Shown piece after piece: positions 3,356 through 53,465 of a stretch of DNA of 64,000 nt. The notes under the pieces are model-generated. The model did not search any database. It saw only the letters and a program-made list of their open reading frames with translations, and was not told the DNA's origin. Made by a program: the position numbers and the translations under genes. This stretch comes from Paludibacteraceae bacterium (GTDB lineage: Bacteria > Bacteroidota > Bacteroidia > Bacteroidales > Paludibacteraceae): the NCBI GenBank assembly GCA_045589755.1, contig JAZNPR010000010.1, forward strand, positions 11,439 through 75,438, written 5' to 3'. Numbering within the stretch: position 1 is the stretch's first letter; the number at the start of each line of letters is the position of its first letter.

Positions 3356-3565
3356 ATGGCTAAAAAAGATAACCTTCTGAGGATTACAGGCGATGCGCAC
3401 ATCGCATTCAATATCCTTAAAAAAGAAAACGAACAATCGCTTTTCTATCACGGGTCAGATACCAACATCGCTATGATGCTCGCTATCGTAGCACATGCTG
3501 ACAAGCGTTTTGCCCGTATCCTTGATATGGCGAACCATATCACCATCGAAATCCCTAATTCATAA
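3356..3565 (+). CDS. small hypothetical protein, paralog of 3059..3268
   Basis: 69-aa ATG ORF in tandem with its paralog. Confidence 0.55.
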   Translation: MAKKDNLLRITGDAHIAFNILKKENEQSLFYHGSDTNIAMMLAIVAHADKRFARILDMANHITIEIPNS

Positions 3566-3587
3566 TTCTTAATTCATAATTACTACT

Positions 3588-5879
3588 ATGTTTCCTAGAA
3601 TTTGCATACAAGATTCTATTATCGCGGGTACACCGCGCCCAGTCCTTTGGGCAGACATCGAGGCTGCCATGCGACAACCCTCTGTCCAAGACATCTGCGA
3701 TAAAATCAAACTCCTTGACGGCAAAGACCCCAACGAGATGGCACTACTCAAAAAGCACCTACCTATCATCACGCCACACACTTGCCGCTTCCGTGGCGAT
3801 GGCGCGCGTAGGTCATCCAATGCCGTCCCATCGGGACTGGTCATGCTCGACATCGACCACATCGACGACCCTCGCGAGTTCTTCTCACGTTGGATTGCTC
3901 CACAACTCACCGCTGAGAACAAAATTTACTTCGTAGCCATCACACCAAGCGGTCACGGCATACGCGTAATCGCCGAGCGCGAGCCAGAAGAAACTATCTC
4001 AGCCGCACAAAATCGCCTTGCCACTTGGTTCTGCCTCACCGAGTTCGATGCCGTCACCAAAGACCTGGCACGCGCGTCCTACCTCATGCCTTGGTCGTAT
4101 GTCCTCTATTGCGAACCTACTGGGCTCAACTTCGATACAGCCGAACGCGAAGCCGTTGTTACCGCCCATTTCGCGCAACTCGAAACCAACTCTCACACTA
4201 TCACACTATCACAACAAAATGTGAGCGAAACACCCGCTTCGAGCGAAGCGAACTTCAAGCAACGCGATCTGCCAACTACAGGCGAAGCCGACCCCACCTT
4301 TCGCGGCATACCATACAGCGCTATCATCTCCGAGCTGGAAAATCTCCTTGGCGGGGCACCTGCAATGGGTGAGCGAAACCAATTTTATTTCACAATGGTA
4401 CGTTACATGCGCTATATCTGCGATTTCAATGCAGACAAGTGTGTAGCCGTCCTGCCTGATTATGGACTTTCTATAGGCGAGCGCCATGCCACAGCCATGT
4501 CCTCTGTCAATCGACCACGCAAAGGTGACATGCCCGAACTACTCAACCGCGCCATTACCACCGCCGAACACGCCAATAGCGAAGCCGAGAAAGAAAACTC
4601 CCTTCCTTCTAGGGAGGGGTTGGGGGTAGGCTTACCGCCATTACCTCGCGTACTCGAACTAATTTGCCGTCGCTTGCCTGAGCCTTTCCGCCCTGCCATG
4701 GTCATTGCTGCCTTGCCTATCCTTGGCGCGTTGGCTACACGCGTGCGCTTTCAGTACCTCGACAAGCAGGAGCACTCCTTCTCCTTCATGTCATGTATCA
4801 CCGCGCCAGCGGCTACAGGTAAGTCCTTTATCCGCAAGCCCGTCAATCTTCTACTAACCCCTATTGACCGACAAGATGAACTCGAACGAAAACGAGAGGA
4901 GGAGTACAAAGAGGCTCTGCGAGCAGCCAAAAACTCCAAGATGCAACCTACCAACCCACGCGCCTGCCCACGCAACAACGGTATTAACGTATCCATCGCC
5001 AAACTGCTACAACTCCTTGCATATTCCGATGGAAAGCACCTTATCGGCATTGGCGAGGAGATTGATACTTTGGTTAAGTCCGAGCGTGCAGGGGTATGGT
5101 CACAGAAGTCAGATATCTATCGTCTTGGCTTCGACAATGCCAAGTACGGACAAAACTACATGTCTGACAATTCATTCTCTGCCAATGTGCCTGTTTTCTA
5201 CAACCTTCTTCTCACAGGAACTCCTGGGGGTATGTATCGTTTCTTTAAGGATGTCGAAGACGGACTTGTTACCCGTTTTTGCTTTGCGCAATTACCCGAT
5301 ATGTTTGGCAGTGACATCCCAGCCTTTGAGAACTATACCGAAGCAGAGGAGCGTGAGATCATTGATATAGCCGAGTGTTTGGATAAGGCGGCTGGTACCA
5401 TTGCATGTTCGCATGTAGGTGTGCGTATTCGTAGGTGGTTGAATGAGAAGCGTGATTTGGCAATACGCGAGGATAGTCGTGCGGTGGACACCTTGCGCAA
5501 GCGTGCTGCTGTGATTGGCTATCGTGCGGGCATGTTGGCTTACCTGCTCAATGAGTGTGTGTATGAGAAGTCGGTGGGTGAGTTCACTACATGGGTAGCG
5601 GAGTATGTGTTCCAAAATCAAATGCAGCTGTTTGGCAGTAAGTTTGAGGAGGTAGCGCAGAGCCAGTTAGTGATGAATGAGCGCAAGAGTTGTGTTGTGT
5701 CTTTGTTACAGCAGTTGCCTGAGCAGTTTACGAGAAACGAGTTGATGGCATTGCGTGCAAGGAATGGTCAGAGTACGAGGGTGGACATGGTCATAAGCCG
5801 TTGGAAGTCTTCGGGCTTCATCACGCAAGTGGACAAAACCACCTACAAAAAGACCCCAAAAGCTCACCTCCCAAAATAA
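3588..5879 (+). CDS. VirE-N (BT4734-like) / PriCT-like / DUF3987 primase-helicase-like replication protein
   Basis: 763 aa. The N-terminus (LPIITPHTCRFRGDGARRSSNAVPSGLVMLDIDHIDDP...ITPSGHGIRVI) looks like the VirE N-terminal domain. The central GERNQFYFTMVRYMRYI is PriCT-like. The C-terminal half has a P-loop-like APAATGKSF and looks DUF3987-like. This combination is typical of Bacteroidota mobile elements. Confidence 0.7.
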   Translation: MFPRICIQDSIIAGTPRPVLWADIEAAMRQPSVQDICDKIKLLDGKDPNEMALLKKHLPIITPHTCRFRGDGARRSSNAVPSGLVMLDIDHIDDPREFFSRWIAPQLTAENKIYFVAITPSGHGIRVIAEREPEETISAAQNRLATWFCLTEFDAVTKDLARASYLMPWSYVLYCEPTGLNFDTAEREAVVTAHFAQLETNSHTITLSQQNVSETPASSEANFKQRDLPTTGEADPTFRGIPYSAIISELENLLGGAPAMGERNQFYFTMVRYMRYICDFNADKCVAVLPDYGLSIGERHATAMSSVNRPRKGDMPELLNRAITTAEHANSEAEKENSLPSREGLGVGLPPLPRVLELICRRLPEPFRPAMVIAALPILGALATRVRFQYLDKQEHSFSFMSCITAPAATGKSFIRKPVNLLLTPIDRQDELERKREEEYKEALRAAKNSKMQPTNPRACPRNNGINVSIAKLLQLLAYSDGKHLIGIGEEIDTLVKSERAGVWSQKSDIYRLGFDNAKYGQNYMSDNSFSANVPVFYNLLLTGTPGGMYRFFKDVEDGLVTRFCFAQLPDMFGSDIPAFENYTEAEEREIIDIAECLDKAAGTIACSHVGVRIRRWLNEKRDLAIREDSRAVDTLRKRAAVIGYRAGMLAYLLNECVYEKSVGEFTTWVAEYVFQNQMQLFGSKFEEVAQSQLVMNERKSCVVSLLQQLPEQFTRNELMALRARNGQSTRVDMVISRWKSSGFITQVDKTTYKKTPKAHLPK
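4194..4213. repeat. CACACTATCACA iteron copy inside the replication-protein CDS
   Basis: cacactatcacactatcaca is translated in frame as SHTITLSQ in the linker between the N-terminal and central domains. It is the same word as at 1410-1433, 1592-1617 and 6027-6046. Confidence 0.8.
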
Positions 5880-6908: not shown

Positions 6909-8702
6909 ATGACCTACCAATGGAACATACGGCATTTGACTGCGGTGGAACAGGAGTCGCAACAGCAGTTGGAGCGCGAACTGAACATCAGTTCCGCTGC
7001 CGCGCGTATGTTGGTCGTACGAGGCATACAGACCGCCGATGAGGCACGCGCTTTTGTGCGCCCATCGCTGGACAATCTACATGACCCCTTCCTCATGAAG
7101 GACATGGACAAAGCCGTAGAGCGTCTGCACCAAGCCATCACACGAGGCGAGAAAATCCTCATCTACGGCGACTACGATGTGGACGGCACCACCGCCGTAG
7201 CGCTCATGTACCGTTTTTTGGAGGGGATAATGGATAATGGACCAATCGCCAATAGCCCGCAGGGCGTCCAATACCCAATAGGCGGAACGCCGTCCAATAT
7301 CGACTACTATATTCCCGACCGCTACACCGAAGGCTATGGCGTATCGCAACAGGGAATTGACTACGCAGCTGCACAAGGTTGCTCACTCATCATTACACTC
7401 GACTGCGGTATTAAGGCGGTAGAGAAAATCGCATATGCCAACAGCAAAGGCATTGATGTCATCGTTTGTGACCACCACACCCCTGGCGATGAACTCCCCG
7501 CAGCCGTAGCGGTGCTCAACATGAAGCGCCATGACTGCCCATACCCATACAAAGACCTTTCGGGTTGCGGTGTCGGTTTCAAACTGGCGCAAGCATATAC
7601 GCAACGCTACCTCGCCTCTCGCCTTTCGCCTAATAGCCTCATCGCCTTGTTGCCTCTCACTCAACTGCTAGCGATGTCTATCGCTTCGGACATTGTACCT
7701 ATCACAGGCGAAAACCGAATCTTGGCGCACTTCGGTATTCAGCAACTCAACACCCAACCTTTCACGGGTTTATCGGCAATCATGCAAGTGGCAGGTATTG
7801 AGGCAAAGAAGATAACAATCAATGAATTAGTATATAAGATTGGGCCGCGCATCAACGCTTGTGGACGCATGAAATCTGGTCGTGCAGCCGTAGAACTATT
7901 GCTCACCGACGACCCTGTTTTTGCACGCCAACAAGCCGAAGAAGTCAATCAGCACAACGATGACCGCCGCGACTGCGATACAGAAACTACCAAAGAGGCA
8001 TTGCTACAATTGCAAGACGACCCTGCCTTCGCTAACCGCCGCTCGACCGTAGTCTATGCCCCTCATTGGCACAAAGGAGTTGTGGGTATTGTGGCATCAC
8101 GTTTGACCGAAACCTACTACCGTCCTACTATCGTTCTCACCGCAGGCGAGGATGGTATCATCTCAGGCTCGGCTCGTTCGGTAGGAGGATTTGATATCTA
8201 TGCTGCTATTGATTCGTGCCATGACTTGCTCACTAACTTTGGCGGACATAAATACGCTGCGGGACTCAGTATGCACATCAATGACCTGCCTGAGTTTAAG
8301 CAGCGTTTTGAGGCATACGTAGTTGCCCATATACAGCCCAATCAGTTGCAACCCACATTGGATATTGAGGCAGAATTGCAATTGGGTGATATTACCAAGC
8401 AGTTCTACAACGTGTTGCGCCATTTGGAGCCCTTCGGCCCAGGCAATCCGCGTCCGCTGTTTGTGTCGCGCCGACTGATCAATCACCGCGACACGCGTGC
8501 TGTAGGCAAAGAGCGTGAGCATTTGCGCTTGGACGTTACCGACCGCATGAATGCCATCACTGGCATCGCCTTCGGGCGTGCCGACATGGCAGAGTATATC
8601 CAAAACGGCAACGCCGTGGACATCTGCTACGAACTTAACGAAAATACATTCAACCACTATACCACCATCCAAATGATGGTACAAGATATTAAGCCATCCT
8701 AA
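6909..8702 (+). CDS. recJ: single-stranded-DNA-specific exonuclease RecJ
   Basis: DHH-family motifs IYGDYDVDGTT, DRYTEGYG, LIITLDCG, VCDHH, and the DHHA1 motif GGHKYAAG. The start is set at MTYQWNIRHL, just after the promoter box. Confidence 0.9.
   Translation: MTYQWNIRHLTAVEQESQQQLERELNISSAAARMLVVRGIQTADEARAFVRPSLDNLHDPFLMKDMDKAVERLHQAITRGEKILIYGDYDVDGTTAVALMYRFLEGIMDNGPIANSPQGVQYPIGGTPSNIDYYIPDRYTEGYGVSQQGIDYAAAQGCSLIITLDCGIKAVEKIAYANSKGIDVIVCDHHTPGDELPAAVAVLNMKRHDCPYPYKDLSGCGVGFKLAQAYTQRYLASRLSPNSLIALLPLTQLLAMSIASDIVPITGENRILAHFGIQQLNTQPFTGLSAIMQVAGIEAKKITINELVYKIGPRINACGRMKSGRAAVELLLTDDPVFARQQAEEVNQHNDDRRDCDTETTKEALLQLQDDPAFANRRSTVVYAPHWHKGVVGIVASRLTETYYRPTIVLTAGEDGIISGSARSVGGFDIYAAIDSCHDLLTNFGGHKYAAGLSMHINDLPEFKQRFEAYVVAHIQPNQLQPTLDIEAELQLGDITKQFYNVLRHLEPFGPGNPRPLFVSRRLINHRDTRAVGKEREHLRLDVTDRMNAITGIAFGRADMAEYIQNGNAVDICYELNENTFNHYTTIQMMVQDIKPS
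7225..7300 (+). repeat. interspersed 'CCAATA/GGCGGAACGCC' repeat element inserted in frame in recJ
   Basis: ggataatggataatggaccaatcgccaatagcccgcagggcgtccaatacccaataggcggaacgccgtccaatat. A 52-bp core recurs almost identically at 42869-42920. It encodes GIMDNGPIANSPQGVQYPIGGTPSN, about 22 aa that E. coli RecJ lacks between ...SLG and NIDY. Confidence 0.8.
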
Positions 8703-8750
8703 ATGGCAGGATGCCTCTTTGAGGCTATAGGACGGTGCAGGGCACCTAAG

Positions 8751-8852
8751 GGATAATGGACGCTCGCATGCGAGCTAATGGATAATGGTCCAATCCCCAA
8801 TAGGCGGAACGCCGTCCATTAGCGAAGCGTCCATTAGCAAAGCGTCCAATAA
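8751..8852 (+). repeat. intergenic copy of the same repeat family
   Basis: ggataatggacgctcgcatgcgagctaatggataatggtccaatccccaataggcggaacgccgtccattagcgaagcgtccattagcaaagcgtccaata. Contains the palindrome gctcgcatgcgagc and the hairpin ggcg-gaa-cgcc. Confidence 0.8.
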
Positions 8853-8864
8853 CAACAAAAAGAT

Positions 8865-14015: not shown

Positions 14016-14050
14016 TATTTCTCCTTCCTTTAAACTTTAAACTCTAAACA

Positions 14051-15082
14051 CTAAACTACTGTCATCTCCCCACATAGGGATACCGACAGCATTTTCTTTA
14101 CTTTTGCTAGATCATCGCCGTGCTCTCCCAATACATGCATCATCTTGGTTAGCAACGCTTCGGTGGTGATGTCATAACCCGATATTACCCCTGCTTTCAA
14201 CAAGTTCAGACTCACAGCATATTGTCCCATGCTCACTGAACCTGTATTACATTGTGTCTTATTCACAATCACCACACCGCGCTCTACTGCATTGCGCAGG
14301 TGTTCGTACAACCATTCGTGAGTAGGCGCATTGCCCGAACCAAATGTTTCTAATACTACGCCACGCAAATCGGGTATATCCAATATGGCAGATACTACCG
14401 ATTCCGTAATTCCAGGGAATAACTTCAGTATTGCTACGTGCGTGTCAAATCGCTTGTACACGTGCAATCCGCGTGCTAGATTACCTGCTGCTTGTATTAG
14501 ATTTTTGTTGTAGGTGATATGTACTCCAGCCCGCGCAAGTGCAGGATAATTGTACGAATTAAAGGCTGAGAAATGCTCTGCATTGCGTTTGGTAGTACGA
14601 TTACCTCGATATAACTCGCCATCCATATATACTGTTACTTCGGGCACGATAGGCAGACCATTGGGGTCGTATGCCCCTGCAATCTCTATGGCTGTTAGCA
14701 GATTTTCTTTTGCATCAGAGCGTAAAACACCCACAGGTAATTGGCTACCAGTAAATACAACAGGTTTACATAGGTTATCCAGCATGAAACTCAGTGCGGA
14801 TGCCGAATAAGCCATCGTGTCGGTACCGTGCAAAATGACAAAACCATCGTAGGCATCATAGTGGTCAGAAACCATTTGTGCCATTTGTAGCCAATTATCT
14901 GGATTCAAGTCCGATGAATCAAGCAATGGCTCAAAAGGTATCATATCCACGTGAATGTCACCTGCAAATAATTCGGGAACAAACGCCTTGAATGTTTGCA
15001 TATCTGCGGGATGTAGAGCCCCAGTATGCAAGTCACGAACCATAGAGATTGTACCTCCTGTAAAAATGAGCAATACTTTCAT
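14051..15082 (-). CDS. ansA: type I L-asparaginase
   Basis: MKVLLIFTGGTISM (catalytic Thr motif), HGTDTMAYSA, 343 aa, no signal peptide. Confidence 0.85.
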   Translation of the reverse strand: MKVLLIFTGGTISMVRDLHTGALHPADMQTFKAFVPELFAGDIHVDMIPFEPLLDSSDLNPDNWLQMAQMVSDHYDAYDGFVILHGTDTMAYSASALSFMLDNLCKPVVFTGSQLPVGVLRSDAKENLLTAIEIAGAYDPNGLPIVPEVTVYMDGELYRGNRTTKRNAEHFSAFNSYNYPALARAGVHITYNKNLIQAAGNLARGLHVYKRFDTHVAILKLFPGITESVVSAILDIPDLRGVVLETFGSGNAPTHEWLYEHLRNAVERGVVIVNKTQCNTGSVSMGQYAVSLNLLKAGVISGYDITTEALLTKMMHVLGEHGDDLAKVKKMLSVSLCGEMTVV

Positions 15083-15896: not shown

Positions 15897-16130
15897 ATGT
15901 ATAAAAACATTTTTTTTATCATTAGTTTTTGAAAGTTTGGCACAGTTTTTGTGAAAATATTTTTGAACATGTGCAACGCAAAGCGCAAGTAATTGTGTTA
16001 TTTAATAAATAGTGTTTTTCATAATGGAAAAAGAGTTCGATGTGATATCGCGCTCTTTTTTTCTTGCCCATACCCCATACCCATTACCCCATATCCAACA
16101 AAAAAATTTGCACACATGCAAAATTTTTAC

Positions 16131-16146: not shown

Positions 16147-18450
16147 ATGTCCAACGCCATATTGATTGATATTATTTTGCCGCTGGCAATAGCGGATGTG
16201 TACACGTATCGGGTATCGGGTATCGGAGAGCGGATATCGGATACCTCGTTGATGGGGTGTCGCGTGTTGGTGCCACTGGGCAAGAAGACGATTACGGGTG
16301 TCGTTTATCGCCTTCACCAGGGCGACTTGCCCGCTTCAGTCAAGGTGCGAGATGTGGTGGATATTATTGACACTCAACCCGTTGTTACGGCTTATCAGTT
16401 GCGCCTATGGCAATGGATGGCGGAGTATTATATGTGTACTTTAGGCGAAGTGATGGCTGCGGCATTGCCTGCGGGAATCATCGACGACAACTATACCGCC
16501 CGCACGATTCAGTATATCCATTTGCATCCTTCGATAGCAGATCCTCGCCAGCAAGAACTAACGCTTGATAGTTTGCGCCGCGCTAAGTCGCAAGAGCAAC
16601 TCTTGCGTTGTTTCCTGCGTATGAATAATAACGGTGTAGAGCGCCGTGTACTCTTAGAGGCGAGTGGGGTAGGCAGTGCGGTGTTGCGTACAATGATTGA
16701 CAAGGGAATATTTTTAGAGGAGGAGCGACCCGTCTCACGATTGCGACAATATACGGGTCAAATGCAGCCGCTACATGCCCTTGATAATCAGCAGACAAAG
16801 GCTGTTGAATCAATACGAGCAAGCTGGCAAACAAAGAACGTAACCCTCTTGCATGGTGTGACGTCCAGCGGAAAGACGGAGGTGTATATTCATCTCATAG
16901 ACGAGCTGCTCAAGCAAGGCAAACAGGTGCTATATCTCGTGCCAGAGATAGCCCTGACTACCCAACTCACCGAACGCTTGCAAGCTGTTTTTGGCAATCA
17001 GGTGTTGGTTTATCACTCGCGCTTCAGTAGCGACGAACGCACAGAGATATATTCCAGCCTATTACCAATATCCAATAGCGAAGCGTCCAATATCCAATAT
17101 CCAAATCTCATCCTCGGTGCCCGCTCCGCGATATTTCTTCCGTTCACCAACTTAGGACTGGTCATTGTGGATGAGGAGCACGAACCCAGTTACAAGCAGC
17201 AGGACCCTGCTCCGCGTTACCATGCACGTTCATCGGCGATAATGATGGCGCAGTGGCATGGCGCTAAGGTACTTTTGGGCACAGCCACACCTTCTGTAGA
17301 ATCTTATCATAATGCTCTGTCTGGGAAATATGGTTTGGTTGAGATGACGGAGCGTTTTCGTGGATTGCAGTTGCCCAAAATTACGATGGTGGACTTGCAG
17401 CGCCAATACCACCGCAAAGAGATGTATGGTCATTTTGCCGACCCTGTGGTATTTCGTATCCGCGAGGAGATTGCCAGAGGCAAACAAGTTATTTTGTTCC
17501 AGAATCGCAGGGGGTATGCACCTTTCTTGCAGTGTCCTAATTGTGGCGAGGTGCCCAAGTGCTCGAACTGCGATGTGAGTATGACCTACCACAAGAGCAA
17601 CAATACCCTCATCTGCCACTCTTGCGGTCATACCCATTCAATATCCAATAGCCCAGAGGGCGTCCATTATCCCATCTCCAATACCCGAATTTGCCCCAAG
17701 TGTGGCTCTGAATGGCGATTGCAGGGTTTTGGTACCGAGCGTTTAGAGGAAGAAATACAGCATCTTTTCCCGCATGCGCGCGTGGAGCGTATGGACTTAG
17801 ATACTACGCGGCGCAAGGATGCTTATCAGCAGATTATTGATCGTTTCGCGTGCCACGAAGTGGACATACTCATTGGCACACAAATGGTTACGAAGGGACT
17901 GCATTTTGATGATGTCTCGTTGGTGGTTGTTTTGCAGGCTGATACGTTGGTTAATCAGCCCGACTATCGGAGTGCCGAGCATGCTTTTCAGATGCTGGAG
18001 CAGGTGTCGGGGCGTGCAGGGCGCAGTGGCAAACAGGGCGAGGTGATGATTCAGACTTTCGACCCTAAGAATCCCTTGTATGCATTGCTGTGTTCGCACG
18101 ATTATGCGGGACTATACCATAGGGAGATTAGCGAGCGACAGATGTTCTGTTTTCCCCCATTTCATCGGCTGATTGTGCTCAGTTTACGCCATCGTGATGT
18201 ACAGCGTTTGGAGAGGAGCAGTGTGGTGCTGATGCAGGCATTGAGAGGGGTGTTTGGCGGGCGTGTGTCTGGTGTGATTACGCCATTGGTTTCACGTCGT
18301 CAGAATCAGTATATCCGCCAGTTGCGTTTGCGTGTGGAGCAAGGCGCAAATGTGCAGCGTGCCAAGCAGTTATTGCGCGAACAAATCCGCTTGCTTTTGC
18401 AACAGACGGATTGCAAAGGTACGATTGTGTCCATTGATGTCGATCCTTAA
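16147..18450 (+). CDS. priA: primosomal replication-restart helicase PriA
   Basis: Walker A GVTSSGKTEVY, DEEH box, Cys-rich zinc region (CPNCG..CSNCD..CHSCG..CPKCGS), helicase motif VI QVSGRAGR. The start is set at MSNAILIDIILPL, after the promoter box. Confidence 0.9.
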   Translation: MSNAILIDIILPLAIADVYTYRVSGIGERISDTSLMGCRVLVPLGKKTITGVVYRLHQGDLPASVKVRDVVDIIDTQPVVTAYQLRLWQWMAEYYMCTLGEVMAAALPAGIIDDNYTARTIQYIHLHPSIADPRQQELTLDSLRRAKSQEQLLRCFLRMNNNGVERRVLLEASGVGSAVLRTMIDKGIFLEEERPVSRLRQYTGQMQPLHALDNQQTKAVESIRASWQTKNVTLLHGVTSSGKTEVYIHLIDELLKQGKQVLYLVPEIALTTQLTERLQAVFGNQVLVYHSRFSSDERTEIYSSLLPISNSEASNIQYPNLILGARSAIFLPFTNLGLVIVDEEHEPSYKQQDPAPRYHARSSAIMMAQWHGAKVLLGTATPSVESYHNALSGKYGLVEMTERFRGLQLPKITMVDLQRQYHRKEMYGHFADPVVFRIREEIARGKQVILFQNRRGYAPFLQCPNCGEVPKCSNCDVSMTYHKSNNTLICHSCGHTHSISNSPEGVHYPISNTRICPKCGSEWRLQGFGTERLEEEIQHLFPHARVERMDLDTTRRKDAYQQIIDRFACHEVDILIGTQMVTKGLHFDDVSLVVVLQADTLVNQPDYRSAEHAFQMLEQVSGRAGRSGKQGEVMIQTFDPKNPLYALLCSHDYAGLYHREISERQMFCFPPFHRLIVLSLRHRDVQRLERSSVVLMQALRGVFGGRVSGVITPLVSRRQNQYIRQLRLRVEQGANVQRAKQLLREQIRLLLQQTDCKGTIVSIDVDP
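16206..16245 (+). repeat. heptamer word repeat (GTATCGG)x3 plus degenerate units inside priA
   Basis: gtatcgg gtatcgg gtatcgg agagcgg atatcgg atacc encodes VSGIGERISDT. Confidence 0.85.
17061..17106 (+). repeat. CCAATA-family repeat in frame in priA
   Basis: attaccaatatccaatagcgaagcgtccaatatccaatatccaaat encodes LPISNSEASNIQYPN. Confidence 0.8.
17633..17687 (+). repeat. CCAATA-family repeat in frame in the priA zinc-binding region
   Basis: cccattcaatatccaatagcccagagggcgtccattatcccatctccaatacccg encodes HSISNSPEGVHYPISNTR between CHSCG and CPKCG. E. coli PriA has about 9 residues between these cysteine pairs; this gene has 22. Confidence 0.8.
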
Positions 18451-18717
18451 TGGATAGTCGTGGCAGTTATTTATATTTTTTTTGTTGGCTTTCAACTTCT
18501 CGACTAAATAATCGAAGAACCCCCTCATTTTCCCCGCTCGCACCGCACAATAACCGCACTATTACCGCACAATAACCGCACAATTCCTGGCGGTCATGGC
18601 CCCCCCCATTTGCAGAAAATTAACACTGTGATTACTGGTTTAGTGCTCGGCGTTAATTCGCCGAGCAAAAAAACACAAGAAAATGCGATTTTTCTTGCAT
18701 TTATGCAAATTTTGTAG

Positions 18718-22320: not shown

Positions 22321-22394
22321 GCGTTCTCGTCGCTATCATCCTACAACAACAAAAGCACCCAAAAGGTGCTTTTGCTGTCGAGGAGAGGCGACTC
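22321..22394. repeat. direct repeat copy 2 (overlaps the genuine tRNA-Pro 3' end)
   Basis: See copy 1. The spacing between copies is 179 bp. Confidence 0.85.
22351..22375 (-). terminator. terminator hairpin downstream of tRNA-Pro
   Basis: aaaAGCACCcaaaaGGTGCTtttg. On the minus strand it is followed by a T-rich run. Confidence 0.6.
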
Positions 22395-22450
22395 GAACGC
22401 CCGACCCCCACGTCCCGAACGTGGTGCGCTACCAACTGCGCTACTCCTCG
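22378..22450 (-). tRNA. tRNA-Pro (CGG)
   Basis: The reverse complement is CGAGGAG-TA-GCGC-AGTTGGTA-GCGC-A-CCACG-TTCGGGA-CGTGG-GGGTC-GGGCG-TTCGAGT-CGCCT-CTCCTCG-A. This is a perfect 73-nt cloverleaf with anticodon CGG; CCA is not encoded. Confidence 0.9.
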
Positions 22451-29052: not shown

Positions 29053-29096
29053 AGAATACTAACGATTAATTATTAACTACTAACTATATAAACACC

Positions 29097-31378: not shown

Positions 31379-32077
31379 GTGAAAACAAAAATCCGACATA
31401 TTAGAAAATTAGTCCTGCTAATGGCGGGACTAATTTTTGGTTTCTCTGCATGTAGTTCAAAATCCGATTCCCGAAACCCTAATCCCGATTCCCTAATCGA
31501 GGACACCATGGTGTCATACCCTGGTCGCACTTTCAGCTACAAGCAAAAGTTCAATGATACACAAGCTAAGCAGGAGTTGGCTGCCAAAGCCATAGGACTG
31601 GCGACACCACCGAAGAATCGCCAAGAGGCAGTGCGTATGCGAGGTCAACTAAAACTGATCAAGAGCAACGATAACTATATTGTGGACTCACTCACGCACT
31701 CCATCCCTTTCCTTGTTCCTGCTGCGGCTGCGGAACTGGAGCGTATCGGCGAAGGGTTTGCCGATATTCTGCAACGCAATGGCTTGCCGCATTATCAGTT
31801 TTATGTCACGAGTGTGCTCCGCACGAAGGAGGACATAAAGCAACTACAAAAAAGTGGTAACATCAATGCTACCACTAATTCATGCCACAATTACGGCACG
31901 ACTTTCGACTTGGCGTACTTCCGATTTAATAAGGTAACGCGCACGCGCGAGTACATGCACCAAGATAATCTGAAACTGGTCTTAGGTCAAGTTCTTCTCA
32001 ACGAACAGCGTGCAGGACGTATCTACGTGAAGTACGAATACAAACAAGCCTGCTTCCACATCACTGTGAGAGAATAA
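31379..32077 (+). CDS. DUF5715-like lipoprotein
   Basis: GTG start, lipobox GFSAC. The block VTSVLRTKEDIKQLQKSGNINATTNSCHNYGTTFDLAY matches my recollection of DUF5715. Confidence 0.55.
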   Translation: MKTKIRHIRKLVLLMAGLIFGFSACSSKSDSRNPNPDSLIEDTMVSYPGRTFSYKQKFNDTQAKQELAAKAIGLATPPKNRQEAVRMRGQLKLIKSNDNYIVDSLTHSIPFLVPAAAAELERIGEGFADILQRNGLPHYQFYVTSVLRTKEDIKQLQKSGNINATTNSCHNYGTTFDLAYFRFNKVTRTREYMHQDNLKLVLGQVLLNEQRAGRIYVKYEYKQACFHITVRE

Positions 32078-32100
32078 TCCTATTTCCAATATCCAACAAC

Positions 32101-32424
32101 CTATATCCTACTCCTAATCTCCACTAGTTCGGCGCGGACGCGTTGAAGAATCTCGGCGGCACGCTGACGGAAGTCGGCTTGGCGTTTGCCTTGCTTGAGT
32201 TCTTGGCGAATGGCCTCAATACGCGTGATATGCATCTCATCACGTAAATACTTAATCTGCTTAATCAGCTCAATATCCGCCATAGTATAATAGCGATTAC
32301 CATGACCATCCTTGCGTGGATCCAACTGAGCGAAATGCTTCTCCCAATAACGCAATGTGGTAGCAGGAAGCCCCGTCATCTCTTGGGCTTCGGTCATAGA
32401 ATAATATATCTTCTCACTCACCAT
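32101..32424 (-). CDS. MerR-family transcriptional regulator
   Basis: The N-terminal HTH YSMTEAQEMTGLPATTLRYWEKHF...RKDGHGNRYYTMADIELI is typical of MerR. Confidence 0.8.
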   Translation of the reverse strand: MVSEKIYYSMTEAQEMTGLPATTLRYWEKHFAQLDPRKDGHGNRYYTMADIELIKQIKYLRDEMHITRIEAIRQELKQGKRQADFRQRAAEILQRVRAELVEIRSRI

Positions 32425-38169: not shown

Positions 38170-39804
38170 TTATTTGGTATATCTTTTTTTTCGTTGTAGC
38201 ACCACGACTAATCCCACTATTGCCAATAGGGTCAATGGCATAATGATACTGATTATCTGTGCTGTGATGCGTTCTTCTCTTGCGCGCTGATCGTTGATAA
38301 GTCGTAGGGTGATTTGCTTTTGGCGTAGTGACATCCATCCGGTGTCGTCGGTCAGGTAAAGTACAGCATTGACCATGAAATCGCGATTGCCAAACTGCGT
38401 TTGTGTATAGCGGTCGTATCCCAAAGGCAATGGTTGTCCTTGTTGCCACTCGTTGCGTATAGTACTGCCTGCCGCCACAACAATTTGTTTGGTTGGTTCG
38501 CTCTTTTTGCGCAATGGTGCATGCAATTGTAGGTCCTCTGGTGGCAATAAATGAGCGTAGAGTGATGTAAATACGCCTTCTATGCTTGCTGCCACTGGAA
38601 TAAAAGCATATTTAAAGTCGGCTTCCGTTCCGTTGAATAAACTCAGGTTTACTTCTGCTGGCGAAGTTGTGAGCTTACTGTTGGTTGAGGTGGCGAGCAG
38701 TGTTGTTTTGTGCAATCCATCTTCTTCGCCTACCAAGTCAATGCACGAAGCCATCGTGGCGCTCACTTGCATGATATTGCGTGTGATGGGTGACGCTTGC
38801 GAAGTGAGTAGCAATGGTGCGTATGTCCACGGCATGGGTTGCCAATTGGGTTGTTGTGCGTTATCCGATACATCCACGGGCACGGGCATACATTGCAAAT
38901 CCTGAACCAATGCAGGGTTGATGCGTACTCCGTAGCGGAAAAGCATATCTGAAATATTCAAGTCCAATGGAATAATGGGTGTCATACCGTTCTGCGACAA
39001 TGTTCGGTTGGAGAACTGCACTCCGTTCACCACCCACAATATGCGTCCACCTTGCATGAGGTATTGATCCAGAATATACTTGTCTTTTTCCGAGAAGGGT
39101 TCTTGTGGGTCGGCTATAATCACTGCGCGATAGCCGTCCAGCACCCCTGTTTCACTACCCAAGATGCCGCGGTCAATCTGGTAATAGCGCGACAAGGCTT
39201 GGCTCAAGTCATAGACATCTTTTTCTGGCAACTCACCATGTCCTTCCAAAAAGGCTATCTTATCCACTTGCTCGCGCGTCAGTGTGTAGAGGGCTTCCAC
39301 AAAAGCGAACTCCAAGTTCTCGATGCTATGATTCAAGTTCTCTTCGCCGCTTAGTCCACGATTATTGCGCAGCAATTCTACTACGGCAGTCTTGCCCTTG
39401 TAGGTCATTAGTGCATAGGGGTAAACAGTCGTTTGTGCCGTTTGTCCCTTGTGTGTGCGCTCGTGAATGACGGTGGGCGATACGCCTTGCGGAATATCCT
39501 CCGCCGACACCCGATACTCAATCTCTGCGCCTCTCGCCTCTCGCCTCTCGCCTCTCGCTGCTTCCAGCTCCTCCACCATTTCTATGGTAGCGCGTTGGAG
39601 CCGTTGAAAACCTGCGTTCAGTTCGCCATCCAGCAGGATAGTGACTTGCAGCGGAGCGTCCAAATCGTGTATAAGGGCACGAGTGGCTGGGGCAATGCTA
39701 TAGCGGCGGTCGTTGGTCATATCCCAACGCACCACGAACTGCTGCACCAGTATGTTTATCACTACCAGTGCCACCATAGCCGCTATGCCTTTCCACATTT
39801 TCAT
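38170..39804 (-). CDS. gldG: GldG-like gliding/T9SS-associated ABC-transporter auxiliary protein
   Basis: N-terminal TM followed by RWDMTNDRRYSIAPATRALIHDLDAPLQVTILLDGELNAGFQRLQRAT, which matches the GldG pattern, and a C-terminal TM anchor. No gldA or gldF is adjacent. Confidence 0.65.
   Translation of the reverse strand: MKMWKGIAAMVALVVINILVQQFVVRWDMTNDRRYSIAPATRALIHDLDAPLQVTILLDGELNAGFQRLQRATIEMVEELEAARGERREARGAEIEYRVSAEDIPQGVSPTVIHERTHKGQTAQTTVYPYALMTYKGKTAVVELLRNNRGLSGEENLNHSIENLEFAFVEALYTLTREQVDKIAFLEGHGELPEKDVYDLSQALSRYYQIDRGILGSETGVLDGYRAVIIADPQEPFSEKDKYILDQYLMQGGRILWVVNGVQFSNRTLSQNGMTPIIPLDLNISDMLFRYGVRINPALVQDLQCMPVPVDVSDNAQQPNWQPMPWTYAPLLLTSQASPITRNIMQVSATMASCIDLVGEEDGLHKTTLLATSTNSKLTTSPAEVNLSLFNGTEADFKYAFIPVAASIEGVFTSLYAHLLPPEDLQLHAPLRKKSEPTKQIVVAAGSTIRNEWQQGQPLPLGYDRYTQTQFGNRDFMVNAVLYLTDDTGWMSLRQKQITLRLINDQRAREERITAQIISIIMPLTLLAIVGLVVVLQRKKRYTK
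39530..39557. repeat. (CCTCTCG)x4 heptanucleotide tandem repeat inside gldG
   Basis: Read directly. Encodes ARGERREARG on the minus strand. Confidence 0.9.
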
Positions 39805-41584: not shown

Positions 41585-41647
41585 TGTTTTTTTATTCTTT
41601 TTAATTCAAAATTCTTAATTCAAAATTCTTAATTCACATAAAGCGTG

Positions 41648-41719: not shown

Positions 41720-42820
41720 ATGGCAACACTTACTCCTATTTTTTCTGCTGCGGAGATTCGTACCGCCCAAGAGTTTATCAATCAGTCGAATAACATAGTT
41801 ATTCTCACGCACATGTCGCCCGATGGCGATGCCATGGGTTCGTCCTTGGCGATGCGCCATTTCTTGGAGGCGCAGGGCAAGCATGTGTCGGTGATTGTGC
41901 CGAATGCTTTTCCCGATTTTTTGGCTTGGTTGCCCAAGGCCGATGAGGATATTATTTACGAGTCGCGCCGTGCGGAGGCGGACGCGCTGTTGGAGCAGGC
42001 GGATTTGGTTATTTGCACCGATTTCAACGAGCCCAAGCGCATTGGTTCGTTGGGCGATAAGTTGCTCACGCTCACTTGCCGCAAGATGATGATTGACCAC
42101 CATCTCCACCCATCCGATTTTCCCGATTTGACATTGTCTTATCCCTCTTCCCCCTCCACCTGCGAACTCGTCTATCGCCTAATAACATGCCTCCAATACC
42201 CGATATCCGATACCCAATACCCGATATCCGATACCCGCTCCCCGATATCCCAAGAAATAGCCACCTGCATCTATACGGGCATGATGACCGATACGGGCAA
42301 TTTCTCCTTTAATTCCAATTATCCAGAGATGTACCAGATTGTCGGTGAATTGGTGTCGTTTGGGGTGAATAAGGACGAGATCTACAACCGTGTTTTCAAT
42401 GCTTATTCGGCGGATCGTATGCGTCTGATGGGCTATTGTTTGTATCAGAAGATGCGCATTTTCCCAGAGTGTCATACGGCGCTCATTTATCTGAGCCGCA
42501 AGGAGTTGTATCGTTTCAATTTCCAGTCAGGTGATGCAGAGGGTATTGTGAACTTGCCGTTGCAGATTAAGGATATTCACTATTCGTGTTTCATGCGCGA
42601 GGACAAGGTCAATCCTACCGAAGTGGCGTTGGCGGGCGGAAGCAAAACGAAGATTAAAATCTCGCTTCGCAGTCAGGGTAATCGTCCTGTGAATGTGTTT
42701 GCTAAGGATATTTTCGGCGGTGGCGGTCATGCCAATGCTTCGGGTGGCGAGTATTATGGTCCATTGCCCGAAGCGGTGCAACGCTTCTTGGACAACTATC
42801 AAGACTACTTTGTCTTGTAA
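41720..42820 (+). CDS. nrnA: DHH/DHHA1 phosphoesterase, NrnA-like oligoribonuclease/pAp phosphatase
   Basis: Motifs HMSPDGDAMGS, DFN, MIDHH, TGMMTDTGNF, GGGHANASG. Confidence 0.75.
   Translation: MATLTPIFSAAEIRTAQEFINQSNNIVILTHMSPDGDAMGSSLAMRHFLEAQGKHVSVIVPNAFPDFLAWLPKADEDIIYESRRAEADALLEQADLVICTDFNEPKRIGSLGDKLLTLTCRKMMIDHHLHPSDFPDLTLSYPSSPSTCELVYRLITCLQYPISDTQYPISDTRSPISQEIATCIYTGMMTDTGNFSFNSNYPEMYQIVGELVSFGVNKDEIYNRVFNAYSADRMRLMGYCLYQKMRIFPECHTALIYLSRKELYRFNFQSGDAEGIVNLPLQIKDIHYSCFMREDKVNPTEVALAGGSKTKIKISLRSQGNRPVNVFAKDIFGGGGHANASGGEYYGPLPEAVQRFLDNYQDYFVL
42191..42251 (+). repeat. CCGATA-type word repeat inserted in frame in nrnA
   Basis: ctccaatacccgatatccgatacccaatacccgatatccgatacccgctccccgatatccc encodes LQYPISDTQYPISDTRSPIS just before the conserved (E)IATCIYTG block. 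Confidence 0.85.
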
Positions 42821-42920
42821 CCCTTACCCCTTACCCATTATCCCTTACCCATTATCCATTACCCATTACCCAATAGCCCGCAGGGCGTCCAATACCCCTT
42901 AGGCGGAACGCCGTCCAATA
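42821..42920 (+). repeat. composite intergenic repeat (CCCTTACCC/CCATTA words + 52-bp CCAATA core) overlapping the 3' end of the exosortase-like gene
   Basis: cccttaccccttacccattatcccttacccattatccattacccattacccaatagcccgcagggcgtccaataccccttaggcggaacgccgtccaatatg. The core matches the recJ insertion at 50 of 52 positions. Confidence 0.85.
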
Positions 42921-43450
42921 TGTGTCCACCACACCCACATGCCGAAGAGCATCAGGTAGAAGAGGTATTTGAAGACATATGTGTGCATCATCTCGAAGAG
43001 TTCGGGGTGATGTTCTATTATCAGGGTAATGAGTGCGATGCGCAATATATTGAATAGGTATATGGCGACGAAGCCGAGTGGGATAAACCACAATTTGCGC
43101 AGCCATTTACCGCGTGCTACGAGCATGATAATCAGCCAGATGAAGGATTGTTTTAGTGCGGTGCAGCTCCATACGATGCGCACGCTGGAACCGCTGTCAA
43201 AGCGCAGGATGTTGTTGGGCAGTTGATGAATGGTGTCGCGCACGAGGTGTACGGTCCAATAGACGGCATTGGCGATGTGTGTAGCGAGGAAATCGAATGG
43301 GGCGGTGATGTCGAGTCCGAACCATGTGACTTGCTCGCCTCCTTCGTCACCTAGCACGGTGTATTTCCAAAAGAAGTTCGCCGCCAGCAGTGCCACCACG
43401 AACAATATAATGTCCGTGTACGGAGCAATCTGTTTTTTCCAATCTTTCAT
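42899..43450 (-). CDS. exosortase/archaeosortase-family intramembrane protein (XrtF-like size)
   Basis: 183 aa from MKDWKKQ. Polytopic membrane protein carrying, in the expected order, the Cys context VRIVWSCTALKQ, the Asn-x-x-Arg context YLFNILRIALI, and a late His (MHTYVFKY), as in the exosortase Cys/Arg/His triad. The 36 upstream codons of the track ORF are probably not translated. Confidence 0.55.
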   Translation of the reverse strand: MKDWKKQIAPYTDIILFVVALLAANFFWKYTVLGDEGGEQVTWFGLDITAPFDFLATHIANAVYWTVHLVRDTIHQLPNNILRFDSGSSVRIVWSCTALKQSFIWLIIMLVARGKWLRKLWFIPLGFVAIYLFNILRIALITLIIEHHPELFEMMHTYVFKYLFYLMLFGMWVWWTHIGRRSA

Positions 43451-43515
43451 TCGCTGTTCGTTTTTAATGATATTTCTTCCGTGTTTCCGTGCCTGTCCGT
43501 GCTCGTCTGTGGTTG

Positions 43516-44535
43516 TTATATGCGGGTTTTTGCGTAGGGTGCGGCATCTACGGGGCAAAACTCCCCCTTCAGGTACTTGTAGTAGCCTGCTTGTGCCACC
43601 ATGGCGGCGTTGTCTGTGGTGTAGGCAAACGGTGGGATATGCACCTGCCAGTGATGGCGTTTGCCGAGGTCGATGAGCGCATCGCGCAGTCCGCTGTTGG
43701 CGCTCACGCCGCCTGCTACGGCAATCTCTTTTATGCCCATGTCTTTGGCTGCTTTCTTCAGCTTATTGATCAGAATATCGATGATAGTCTTCTGCAACGA
43801 AGCGCACAAATCCGCTTTATTTTCCTCGATGAAATCGGGGTTTTCTTTCAGTTGGCCGCGCAGGAAATAGAGGAACGAGGTCTTCAGGCCCGAGAACGAG
43901 TAGTTGTATTCGGGTATATGTGGTTTGCTGAATTGGAACGCCTCGGCATTTCCTTCTTTGGCAAGGCGGTCTATCCATGGACCACCAGGGTAGGGCAGTC
44001 CCATGATTTTCGCGCATTTATCGAATGCTTCGCCTGCCGCATCGTCTATCGTCTGTCCGATGATCTCCATGGTGTAGTGGTCTTTCACCAGCACAATCTG
44101 ACTATTTCCTCCACTCACCAACAAACACAAGAACGGAAAATTCGGAGCCTGATGCCCATGCTTCTCCTCGATGAAATGGGCCAAAATATGCGCTTGCAGG
44201 TGGTTGACTTCCACCAGCGGTATGCCTTGCGACAATGCCAATCCTTTGGCAAAACTGGTACCCACCAGCAGACTACCCAGCAACCCTGGTCCGCGTGTGA
44301 AGGCAATCGCGCTGAGTTGGTCTGCCGTCACGCCTGCGCGTTTGAGGGCGGCATCTACTACGGGAACGATATTCAGTTGGTGCGCGCGGCTAGCAAGTTC
44401 GGGTACTACGCCGCCGAACTCCTCGTGTACGCCTTGTGATGCGGTCACATTGCTCAACAGTATGCCGTCTTTGAGGACTGCTGCCGAGGTATCATCGCAG
44501 CTGGATTCTATTGCGAGAATAATGGTTTCTTTCAT
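43516..44535 (-). CDS. tsaD: tRNA N6-adenosine threonylcarbamoyltransferase TsaD
   Basis: ILAIESSCDDTSAAV, HxxxH-type LQAHILAH, SGGVSAN. 339 aa. Confidence 0.9.
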   Translation of the reverse strand: MKETIILAIESSCDDTSAAVLKDGILLSNVTASQGVHEEFGGVVPELASRAHQLNIVPVVDAALKRAGVTADQLSAIAFTRGPGLLGSLLVGTSFAKGLALSQGIPLVEVNHLQAHILAHFIEEKHGHQAPNFPFLCLLVSGGNSQIVLVKDHYTMEIIGQTIDDAAGEAFDKCAKIMGLPYPGGPWIDRLAKEGNAEAFQFSKPHIPEYNYSFSGLKTSFLYFLRGQLKENPDFIEENKADLCASLQKTIIDILINKLKKAAKDMGIKEIAVAGGVSANSGLRDALIDLGKRHHWQVHIPPFAYTTDNAAMVAQAGYYKYLKGEFCPVDAAPYAKTRI

Positions 44536-47190: not shown

Positions 47191-47271
47191 CTAAATTTCC
47201 CCGACACTACCAAATTTTTTCGCTAAAAAATCTCATTTTTTCCTCATTTTTCCCTCCCCATATCTTTCTAT

Positions 47272-47374
47272 ACATTCCCGATACATACCCGATACATTCC
47301 CGACACATACCCGATACATACGTATATCCCATGAATACTCTACGAATACCCCGCGTATACCCCACGAATACCCC
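47272..47374. repeat. word repeats (CCCGATACAT x4; CGAATACCCC x3)
   Basis: acattcccgatacatacccgatacattcccgacacatacccgatacatacg...ctacgaataccccgcgtataccccacgaatacccc read directly. The ORFs called here on both strands are repeat artefacts. Confidence 0.85.
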
Positions 47375-47573
47375 AAATCGCCTACTAAAATGATAGAAGC
47401 ACCTCCTATCCCCCCACTCTCTATTGGCTGTTTTGTGCACGGCGGTGGTCCGCCGTGTAACCAACTTTGCATGAAACACCCTCTTTTGCTACTTCGACTT
47501 TACAAAATGAAAATAAATGGGGGGGGTAAAATGCTTATTGGGATGTTTAATTGCAAAATTCATATATTTTTTG

Positions 47574-53461: not shown

Positions 53462-53465
53462 GGCA

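Follow-up and report, generated by a model that had tools for sequence, protein, structure and literature searches.

The recJ locus and its insert

We analyzed a 64,000-nucleotide stretch of Paludibacteraceae DNA (contig JAZNPR010000010.1 of assembly GCA_045589755.1, hereafter the window), in which the recJ gene carries an in-frame insert built of short hairpin repeats. The gene (6909 to 8702, plus strand) encodes a protein of 597 amino acids with the Pfam domains DHH, DHHA1 and RecJ_OB, matches to the Protein Data Bank (PDB) entries 8y30, 5f54 and 2zxo, and 33% identity to Escherichia coli RecJ. Positions 7225 to 7300 are read in the recJ frame as GIMDNGPIANSPQGVQYPIGGTPSN, as an initial annotation of this DNA had stated, and correspond to residues 106 to 130 of the product. 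That annotation had described a 76-bp element lodged in an essential gene. There is indeed a repeat inside recJ, but what recurs is a hairpin module of 15 to 24 nt accompanied by 7-nt repeats, and recJ is generally known to be non-essential in E. coli.

The insert (plus strand) opens with 2.4 copies of GGATAAT (7225 to 7241) and the heptamer CCAATCG (7242 to 7248), followed by unit A (7249 to 7272), the heptamer CCAATAC and unit B (7275 to 7298). Unit A contains the hairpin GCCCGCAGGGC (7255 to 7265) and unit B the hairpin GGCGGAACGCC (7281 to 7291), and both stem-loops proposed at the outset, GCCC-GCA-GGGC and GGCG-GAA-CGCC, were present in the predicted folds. The 52-bp core of the insert (7249 to 7300) has a second copy with two mismatches at 42870 to 42921, one base off the position first given (42869 to 42920) for what had rightly been called a near-identical recurrence; none of 100 dinucleotide shuffles yielded any match. 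The second half of the core, AATAGGCGGAACGCCGTCCA, is repeated exactly at 8799 to 8818, as part of a half-core copy at 8797 to 8820 and within the region (8790 to 8852) where a partial copy had been noted. A copy of the first half that differs at two positions lies inside priA, at 17645 to 17665. Within recJ, unit A is read as xCC AAT AGC and unit B as CCA ATA GGC, that is, in two different reading frames, and the conserved object is therefore the DNA and not the peptide.

The repeat unit consists of CCAWTA-G, a GC stem closed by a GAA, GCA or AAA triloop, and C-GTCCAWT. Units span 15 to 24 nt, are chained head to tail and are interleaved with 7-nt tandem repeats; GGATAAT, CCAATAT and ACCCATT are among the heptamers around them. 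The stems seen included GCCC/GGGC, GGCG/CGCC, GC/GC, GCTCGC/GCGAGC and GGTGC/GCACC, all with loops of 3 nt. Scanning the window with a grammar for the unit brought up 11 bona fide units, spread over five places: two in recJ, five in the spacer between recJ and tdk, one each at 17075 to 17088 and 17648 to 17665 in priA, and two in a spacer at 42873 to 42916. The recJ-tdk chain (8724 to 8853) comprises two minus-strand units (8730 to 8749 and 8758 to 8778) and three plus-strand units (8800 to 8817, 8819 to 8832 and 8834 to 8847). In the other spacer, repeat scans placed 7.7 copies of ACCCATT before the A-B composite (42820 to 42921 as a whole, plus strand). A convergent exosortase-like open reading frame (ORF; 42899 to 43558, minus strand), whose Pfam match falls below the curated cut-off, ends in this composite, its last seven codons (HIGRRSA) and stop codon coming from the reverse complement of unit B. 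Repetitive extragenic palindromic sequences (REPs) are likewise reported to give flanking genes their stop codons.

Heptamer arrays also occur apart from the units. Tandem arrays with a period of 7, 14 or 21 number 18 in the window, compared with about 0.8 per shuffled sequence, an excess of about 20-fold. Examples lie at 399 to 421, 756 to 787, 3556 to 3581, 14031 to 14057, 16067 to 16097, 29057 to 29086, 32077 to 32110 and 41601 to 41636; the arrays have many unrelated sequences and are found mostly in spacers. Spacer arrays of period 11 or 22 at 47270 to 47375 (ATACATACCCG / ACGAATACCCC) and 18542 to 18585 (ACCGCACAATA) may be related to heptamers of the CCNATAC type.

Within these 64 kb, seven in-frame inserts fall into four genes (recJ, priA, a gldG-like gene and an NrnA-like gene), four of them being heptamer arrays that lack a hairpin. 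The second recJ insert (7611 to 7646, plus strand) is of the latter kind, with two CTCGCCT heptamers followed by TTCGCCT, AATAGCC and TCATCGCC, read as LASRLSPNSLIA. The priA gene (16147 to 18450) has three separate inserts, all in frame and on the plus strand. The first, at 16207 to 16243, is an array of five GTATCGG copies in the N-terminal 3'BD domain. The second (17060 to 17105) combines CCAATAT heptamers with a GCGAAGC mini-hairpin unit, read as PISNSEASNIQYPN, at a site that is variable across PriA homologues. The third (17630 to 17690), a unit with the hairpin GCCCAGAGGGC plus heptamers, read as SISNSPEGVHYPISNT, is lodged in the zinc-binding region between its last two pairs of Cys residues. 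Among 121 close PriA homologues, only about 8 have this insert, and most others carry CGHSISAPSHCPKC or another short or unrelated segment. The gldG-like ABC_transp_aux gene (38170 to 39804) contains five copies of GCGAGAG in frame (39523 to 39558, minus strand), read as EAARGERREARGAE, and the NrnA-like DHH gene (41720 to 42820) seven copies of ATACCCG or ATATCCG in frame (42193 to 42250, plus strand), read as QYPISDTQYPISDTRSPIS. In one close relative (locus L034, 6362 to 6411), an A-B hairpin composite replaces the pure heptamer array in the same NrnA-like loop.

Alignment with other RecJ proteins indicated that the recJ insertion is specific to this lineage. E. coli RecJ, already thought to be much shorter here, has a 19-residue gap opposite the insert, and in the solved structures 8y30 and 5f54 the gap amounts to about 20 residues. 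In 133 diverse RecJ representatives (38 to 63% identity), the segment, which we call site 1, measures 7 residues in 93 and no more than 13 in 130, versus 27 here. Site 1 is extended to some degree in all close relatives, as one would see if the segment were an ancestral RecJ loop. We rejected that reading on the strength of these lengths and of the absence of the segment from the solved structures and from E. coli RecJ. An assembly artefact is countered by the presence of the same DNA in dozens of independent metagenome-assembled genomes (MAGs) from different studies, and we give next to no credence to either explanation.

The insert lies between the helix that follows motif I (GDYDVDG) and the strand that precedes motif II (IPDR). 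An AlphaFold2 model, built on a 30-sequence alignment of close relatives and used for local secondary structure alone, since it was poor (mean predicted local distance difference test score of 42), has a helix at residues 91 to 109, coil at 110 to 130 and a strand at 131 to 134. In beta-alpha-beta folds, the crossover from helix to strand faces the side of the sheet remote from its catalytic end. Judged from topology and not from coordinates, the insert would thus lie on the face opposite the active site, and for this reason the roughly 20 added residues most likely form a surface loop that is neutral or does slight harm and is no functional module. HMMER broke several RecJ matches at residue 129.

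A dispersed family of constrained hairpin units

We scanned one genome per species from 185,579 species for exact matches to CCAWTAGSCSRVASGSCGTCCAWT, a pattern for which we estimate, from its information content, less than one chance match. At least 114 stretches from at least 35 assemblies were found, and all matches listed belonged to Paludibacteraceae or to uncultured Bacteroidales MAGs; the source samples were hindgut contents or faeces of sheep, yak, buffalo, deer and cattle. The 50-nt A-B composite was present in 27 copies with at least 10 unrelated flank contexts. Copying of the repeats has thus taken place between unrelated loci and across many species within one family, in line with the original view of a dispersed repeat and against the alternative that the core might not recur elsewhere. 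Two exact-pattern scans of viral contigs gave no match, nor did blastn searches of plasmid and phage collections with the insert.

The reality of the hairpin was assessed in the window and 119 related loci by delimiting inner segments from their flanks alone. Of 262 such segments, 192 end in a perfectly paired stem that is 3 bp or longer, compared with about 9 of 262 after shuffling. Stems were GC-only and 2 to 6 bp long, with a mode of 4, and GNA triloops predominated (GAA 103, GCA 53 and AAA 32, followed by GTA 9 and AGA 8). When 68 distinct 24-nt units were aligned, 95.6% of the cells were paired, a value reached by none of 500 shuffles (70.5%), and all four stem pairs showed changes on both sides. 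Two of these pairs were set by the retrieval pattern, and the covariation test therefore rests on the other two; on these, the stem is shown to be kept by covariation. The flanks are conserved as well. The 5' flank of the units reads A/T-T-A-G (CCAATAG), and 377 of 381 units have GT directly 3' of the hairpin, the 3' CGTCC tag being almost invariant and the 5' heptamer more variable; in the 24-nt alignment, pairing in the stem ends with the first C of CGTC. GCGAAGC ranks second among the hairpin cores, with 57 of 397 units, and d(GCGAAGC) is an extraordinarily stable, nuclease-resistant DNA mini-hairpin with a melting temperature of 76.5 °C (PMC13037366). As single-stranded DNA, the inverted chain of the recJ-tdk spacer folded better than shuffles (z = -4.0).

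The behavior of the units inside genes was followed in about 0.98 Mb of sampled loci holding 397 units in 187 clusters, a sample biased by its retrieval with a pattern for two unit types. About 115 of the 187 clusters (about 60%) were located within long ORFs or conserved genes, and 19 of 20 host ORFs examined encode conserved housekeeping proteins. The hosts include RecJ, PriA, RecQ, a sigma-54 response regulator, MurG, a Mur ligase, MnmA and TruA, as well as CobW, a serine dehydratase, M16 and M20 peptidases, MatE, a TonB-dependent receptor and an MBOAT protein. In the encoded peptides, S (18.5%), P (13.3%), G (12.5%) and N (9.3%) are abundant and L, F, C, K and D are scarce. By a stringent test, 75 clusters are read through in frame, compared with at most 3 that have long ORFs on both sides and lack continuity. 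Among units on the same strand as their host gene, frame 1 was used 126 times and frame 0 79 times, while the frame containing TAG was never used. Intragenic clusters lie on the same strand as the gene in 99 cases and on the opposite strand in 12, versus 14 and 19 in unidirectional spacers, and the orientation bias is therefore due to selection in coding DNA and not to the insertion process.

Spacer copies were found in 33 unidirectional, 16 convergent and 6 divergent spacers. Within clusters, units mostly share one orientation (33 ++, 27 --, 13 +++ and 18 ---), and the seven mixed clusters all have their tags outward. Over the 8-kb loci, unit orientation was weakly related to skew, a relation confounded by gene orientation. 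Translational bypass or excision of the insert was considered as well; as the frames are open throughout and contain no stops, we rejected both.

The consistent maintenance of an open frame, anticipated for recJ in the initial annotation, also bears on the idea that the 7-nt arrays act as slippage switches that would shift the frame of recJ, priA and other genes in phase variation. A period of 7 cannot be divided by 3, four genes of the window contain arrays of three to seven copies, and consensus assemblies would hide minority variants in array length. Against this, we encountered no frameshifted allele, the 75 read-through clusters stand against at most 3 ambiguous ones, every recJ gene in the sampled loci is in frame across site 1, and copy numbers are low, making such a function very improbable. 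Overall, these data establish a family that is dispersed and copied as DNA, with a constrained hairpin and with selection holding it in frame in the loops of housekeeping proteins; we read its units as selfish repeats resembling REPs, Rickettsia palindromic elements (RPEs) and small dispersed repeats (SDRs).

Allelic variation at recJ and the route of spread

We then compared recJ among relatives, in which L numbers denote 8-kb loci from related genomes. The 120 closest RecJ proteins, which include "Paludibacteraceae bacterium" MAGs, are 82 to 95% identical to the query and 578 to 665 residues long, and their length varies almost wholly at two sites, site 1 and the site of the second insert (site 2). 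Site 1 holds one to six units per relative, close relatives differing by whole units that add modules such as MDNG, GRSAAAMG, RSQSEL, PIANSPQGVQYPIGGT or PSNSEAS. Other relatives have site-1 cassettes built of heptamers, namely, QNLASNLSPLTFN, DKVIQEQGTKSQD or GIGNRTAMPIGNR...PISDIRYPLPA. At site 2, some relatives share the CTCGCCT array of the window, while L003 and L024 carry hairpin units that are the same A-B composite, in DNA and in peptide, as the one at site 1 of the window. The close relative L001 has the reverse complement of the window array at the same codon, matching at 29 of 33 nt (score of 44 versus 11.7 ± 2.4 for shuffles), and the empty site reads SLPFDN (L020). In the more distant L067, the site-1 copy is decayed, its hairpins having been eroded by point mutation.

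Outside the variable sites, the RecJ backbones diverge by a median of 5.7%, and on them at least four cassette types at site 1 and at least five at site 2 form 18 combinations. L005 has the backbone nearest to that of the window (0.8% amino acid divergence), yet a wholly different site-1 cassette. These two also show a run of third-position differences at 7196 to 7222, just 5' of the insert, which is the mark left by homologous recombination. Strains have therefore exchanged alleles, and this makes up much of what looks like turnover. A tree built by the unweighted pair group method with arithmetic mean (UPGMA) implied at least 31 and 35 state changes; we rejected these numbers as a measure of de novo turnover, since recombination footprints account for much of them. 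Several independent origins per site are still required.

Variation by units extends to the recJ-tdk spacer, which holds 0, 4 or 13 units in relatives and 5 in the window. The 13 units of L067 form a single head-to-tail chain in one orientation within a spacer of 355 nt, and the spacers of the window and L005 differ by 29 nt flanked by CTAA/TGGATAATGG. In L001, the closest relative, this spacer (4828 to 5289) contains a PDDEXK_3 (PF13366) gene in place of the five-unit chain, with an inverted repeat on its two sides that is imperfect and about 26 nt long (gcgcgcaaatcaacttccttgcgcgc / gcgcggcaggaagttgattgccgcgc). A link between this gene and the units was rejected, as its inverted repeats are its own and unrelated and no units lie nearby; it may be a separate small mobile gene.

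The persistence of so many cassette types on recJ backbones about 6% diverged could mean that the inserts are selected, functional hypervariable loops that alter replication and repair proteins such as RecJ, PriA and RecQ, shield them (from inhibitors, for instance) or tune the rates of repair and mutation. The presence of these three and of TruA among the hosts, which echoes the excess of REPs in replication/repair and pseudouridine synthase genes (PMC3733652), speaks for this idea. It is opposed by the occurrence of identical DNA in spacers and in both orientations, by the unrelated peptides that the two frames give, by the many unrelated housekeeping hosts, by the low-complexity S/P/G/N-rich composition of the peptides and by the older L067 copy decaying through point mutation. 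We consider it improbable.

We conclude instead, with considerable confidence, that the recJ segment is a dispersed hairpin repeat that was inserted in frame, is specific to its lineage and is tolerated in a permissive protein loop; this confidence applies to the identity of the feature and not to its route of spread. Several observations weigh against it. The 89-nt recJ insert as a whole folded no better than shuffles (z = -0.8 as DNA and -0.2 as RNA), and the structure that matters in recJ is therefore not one long hairpin. The left and right flanks of a unit are identical in 181 of 381 cases, only a modest excess over the 137 ± 6.5 expected. Surface exposure was taken from topology because the structure model was poor, and the counts come from the pattern-biased sample described above. 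At the recJ sites, no clean pair of empty and filled alleles with a target-site duplication was obtained, and insertion is inseparable from replacement because all variants there, including those free of hairpins, are built of heptamers. Finally, none of 3,067 ORFs in the sampled loci resembled the REP-associated tyrosine transposase RayT (phmmer with E. coli RayT, E ≤ 10), a search that could miss divergent RAYTs.

This last result accords with the main rival account, which needs no dedicated mobility and in which arrays and units spread and turn over only by replication slippage, template switching and gene conversion between arrays that share 7-nt repeats, followed by homologous recombination between strains. 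Units always lie within heptamer arrays, and direct repeats border the indels between relatives, such as the 29 nt by which the window and L005 differ. The recombination footprint 5' of the recJ insert and the 18 combinations of site-1 and site-2 types fit this account, as does the fact that no transposase was found in the sampled DNA; CGTC-type REPs, too, lack a dedicated one (PMC3733652). It fails, however, to account for the conserved unpaired flanks (TAG...CGTCC) around compensating stems, for arrival at loci with no prior array and for the tags-outward arrangement of all seven mixed clusters, and the available homology of 7 to 28 nt is, by general knowledge, short for RecA-dependent exchange. 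We regard it as a possibility to be taken seriously but as rather unlikely.

The route that we would favor is copy-and-paste via single-stranded hairpin DNA, in which a hairpin together with CGTCCAWTA would insert 3' of a CCNWTA heptamer. The unit's own 3' CGTCCAWTA would regenerate the target, which would explain both the tandem head-to-tail chains and the heptamer flanks. Slippage by 7 nt (7 = 1 mod 3) would alter the length of the arrays, and selection would then retain only in-frame, same-strand copies in loops. This scheme shares the logic of single-strand, hairpin-guided transfer with IS200/IS605 and REP-RAYT systems. We advance insertion 3' of CCNWTA tentatively, giving it slightly less than an even chance. 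A stronger version, in which the units are currently active, ultra-small hairpin elements (15 to 19 nt per event) of Bacteroidota that restore their own target and are moved by an as yet unrecognized enzyme onto CCNWTA landing pads, appears doubtful. If it were true, they would be among the smallest mobile elements and an independent counterpart of the cyanobacterial SDR/heptamer system; coding DNA would be occupied more than spacers, and the surface loops of replication, repair and housekeeping proteins would be continually remodeled.

As to the surroundings of recJ, a 763-amino-acid ORF with BT4734-like N-terminal and DUF3987 domains (3588 to 5879) lies upstream of the gene and near a tRNA gene; it is of the primase/helicase type typical of integrated Bacteroidales elements, and L001 likewise has a DUF3987 gene upstream of recJ. 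Two tRNAs (856 to 927 and 22378 to 22450) were the only Rfam matches in the window at gathering thresholds. Two very large plus-strand ORFs lie at 48146 to 53461 (1,771 amino acids) and 53364 to 60179 (2,271 amino acids). GC skew was uninformative within the window.

Related repeat systems and significance

The initial annotation had likened the recJ insert to RPEs, reportedly described by Ogata et al. in 2000, and this likeness is supported: in both cases, dispersed palindromic repeats lie in spacers and in frame in conserved genes, the extra loops are tolerated and old copies decay in place. There are clear differences, which concern size and form and do not rest on a comparison of sequences. 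RPE-1 measures about 100 to 150 bp, whereas the units here are 15 to 24 nt long, with composites of 52 to 76 bp, GC stems of 2 to 6 bp and triloops. RPE-4 and RPE-6, which are CGTC REPs, have stems of 8 to 9 bp. The present units are also chained head to tail within 7-nt arrays. The RPE host is obligately intracellular, in contrast to the free-living gut Bacteroidales studied here.

REPs are tagged by short motifs, and it is among those with the tag CGTC that RPE-4 and RPE-6 have been classed (PMC3733652). CGTC REPs are present in Bacteroidetes, and no transposase is known for them; intragenic REPs are concentrated in replication/repair and pseudouridine synthase genes in other phyla (PMC3733652). 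The phenomenon is thus of a known kind. The initial annotation had been aware of no such case in Bacteroidota; our literature search found no description of such repeats for Paludibacteraceae. The units share with CGTC and GTAG REPs the short GC-rich stem-loop with conserved stem-adjacent bases (here ..TAG on the 5' side and CGTCC on the 3' side) and the preference for unidirectional and convergent over divergent spacers (here 33 and 16 versus 6). Mixed clusters with tags outward ('HH') and intragenic copies in replication/repair and pseudouridine synthase genes are further points in common with REPs. CGTC families, however, have stems of 8 to 9 bp with A/T at the first two positions and loops of 4 to 5 nt, in contrast to the GC-only stems of 2 to 6 bp and 3-nt loops found here (PMC3733652). 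In those families, head-to-head dimers predominate and head-to-tail ones are negligible, whereas here the head-to-tail arrangement dominates and about 60% of sampled clusters are intragenic. For the tag itself, the picture is mixed: it is unpaired in CGTC REPs, and CGTCC follows nearly all hairpins here, yet its first C is paired in the stem.

Compared with GTAG REPs and the REPIN-RAYT system, our units lack GTAG and have CCAATAG as their 5' flank. As in REPINs, inverted doublets of units give a longer hairpin, as seen in the recJ-tdk chain; most clusters here are, however, tandem and not inverted, and no RayT homologue was found in the sampled DNA. Miniature inverted-repeat transposable elements, which measure 70 to 300 bp and have terminal inverted repeats of 15 to 30 bp and a target-site duplication, are a poor match for units of 15 to 24 nt that have neither terminal inverted repeats nor a strict duplication. 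The work on d(GCGAAGC) concerns physical chemistry and replication or priming sites (PMC13037366), whereas here the same core belongs to a dispersed repeat family.

In form, the repeats appear closest to the cyanobacterial SDRs in heptamer arrays. The SDRs of Nostocaceae, of 21 to 27 nt and situated in heptameric short tandemly repeated repetitive (STRR) arrays, are said to have been described by Elhai et al. in 2008 (Genome Res 18:1484). They too are reported to be very small dispersed units with a compensated hairpin inside heptamer arrays, confined to one clade and recently mobile. They belong to another phylum and have other sequences, and the comparison with SDR1 to SDR8 was by description, so that the present units are at most an analogue. 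To our knowledge, large-scale in-frame occupation of housekeeping genes is not a feature of SDRs. Cyanobacterial SDRs are also mentioned in PMC5861425.

These findings extend the in-frame colonization of genes by selfish hairpin repeats beyond Rickettsia, a few Proteobacteria and Verrucomicrobia, and they do so at high density in an abundant, uncultured lineage of the herbivore gut. Of interest are the small size of the unit, its scaffold of heptamers, the large share of intragenic copies and the way in which fixed loops vary by whole cassettes. For those who compare such genomes, the inserts inflate apparent protein divergence and can split alignments and mislead strain typing and MAG gene calling. 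The association of very stable GNA-triloop mini-hairpins with 7-nt arrays has its parallel in the cyanobacterial system. What produces or mobilizes the repeats could come to light if genomes that have them are compared with genomes that lack them. The natural alleles, which include the same loop with different cassettes or different numbers of units and the same array in both orientations, are a ready-made experiment on how protein loops tolerate insertions.

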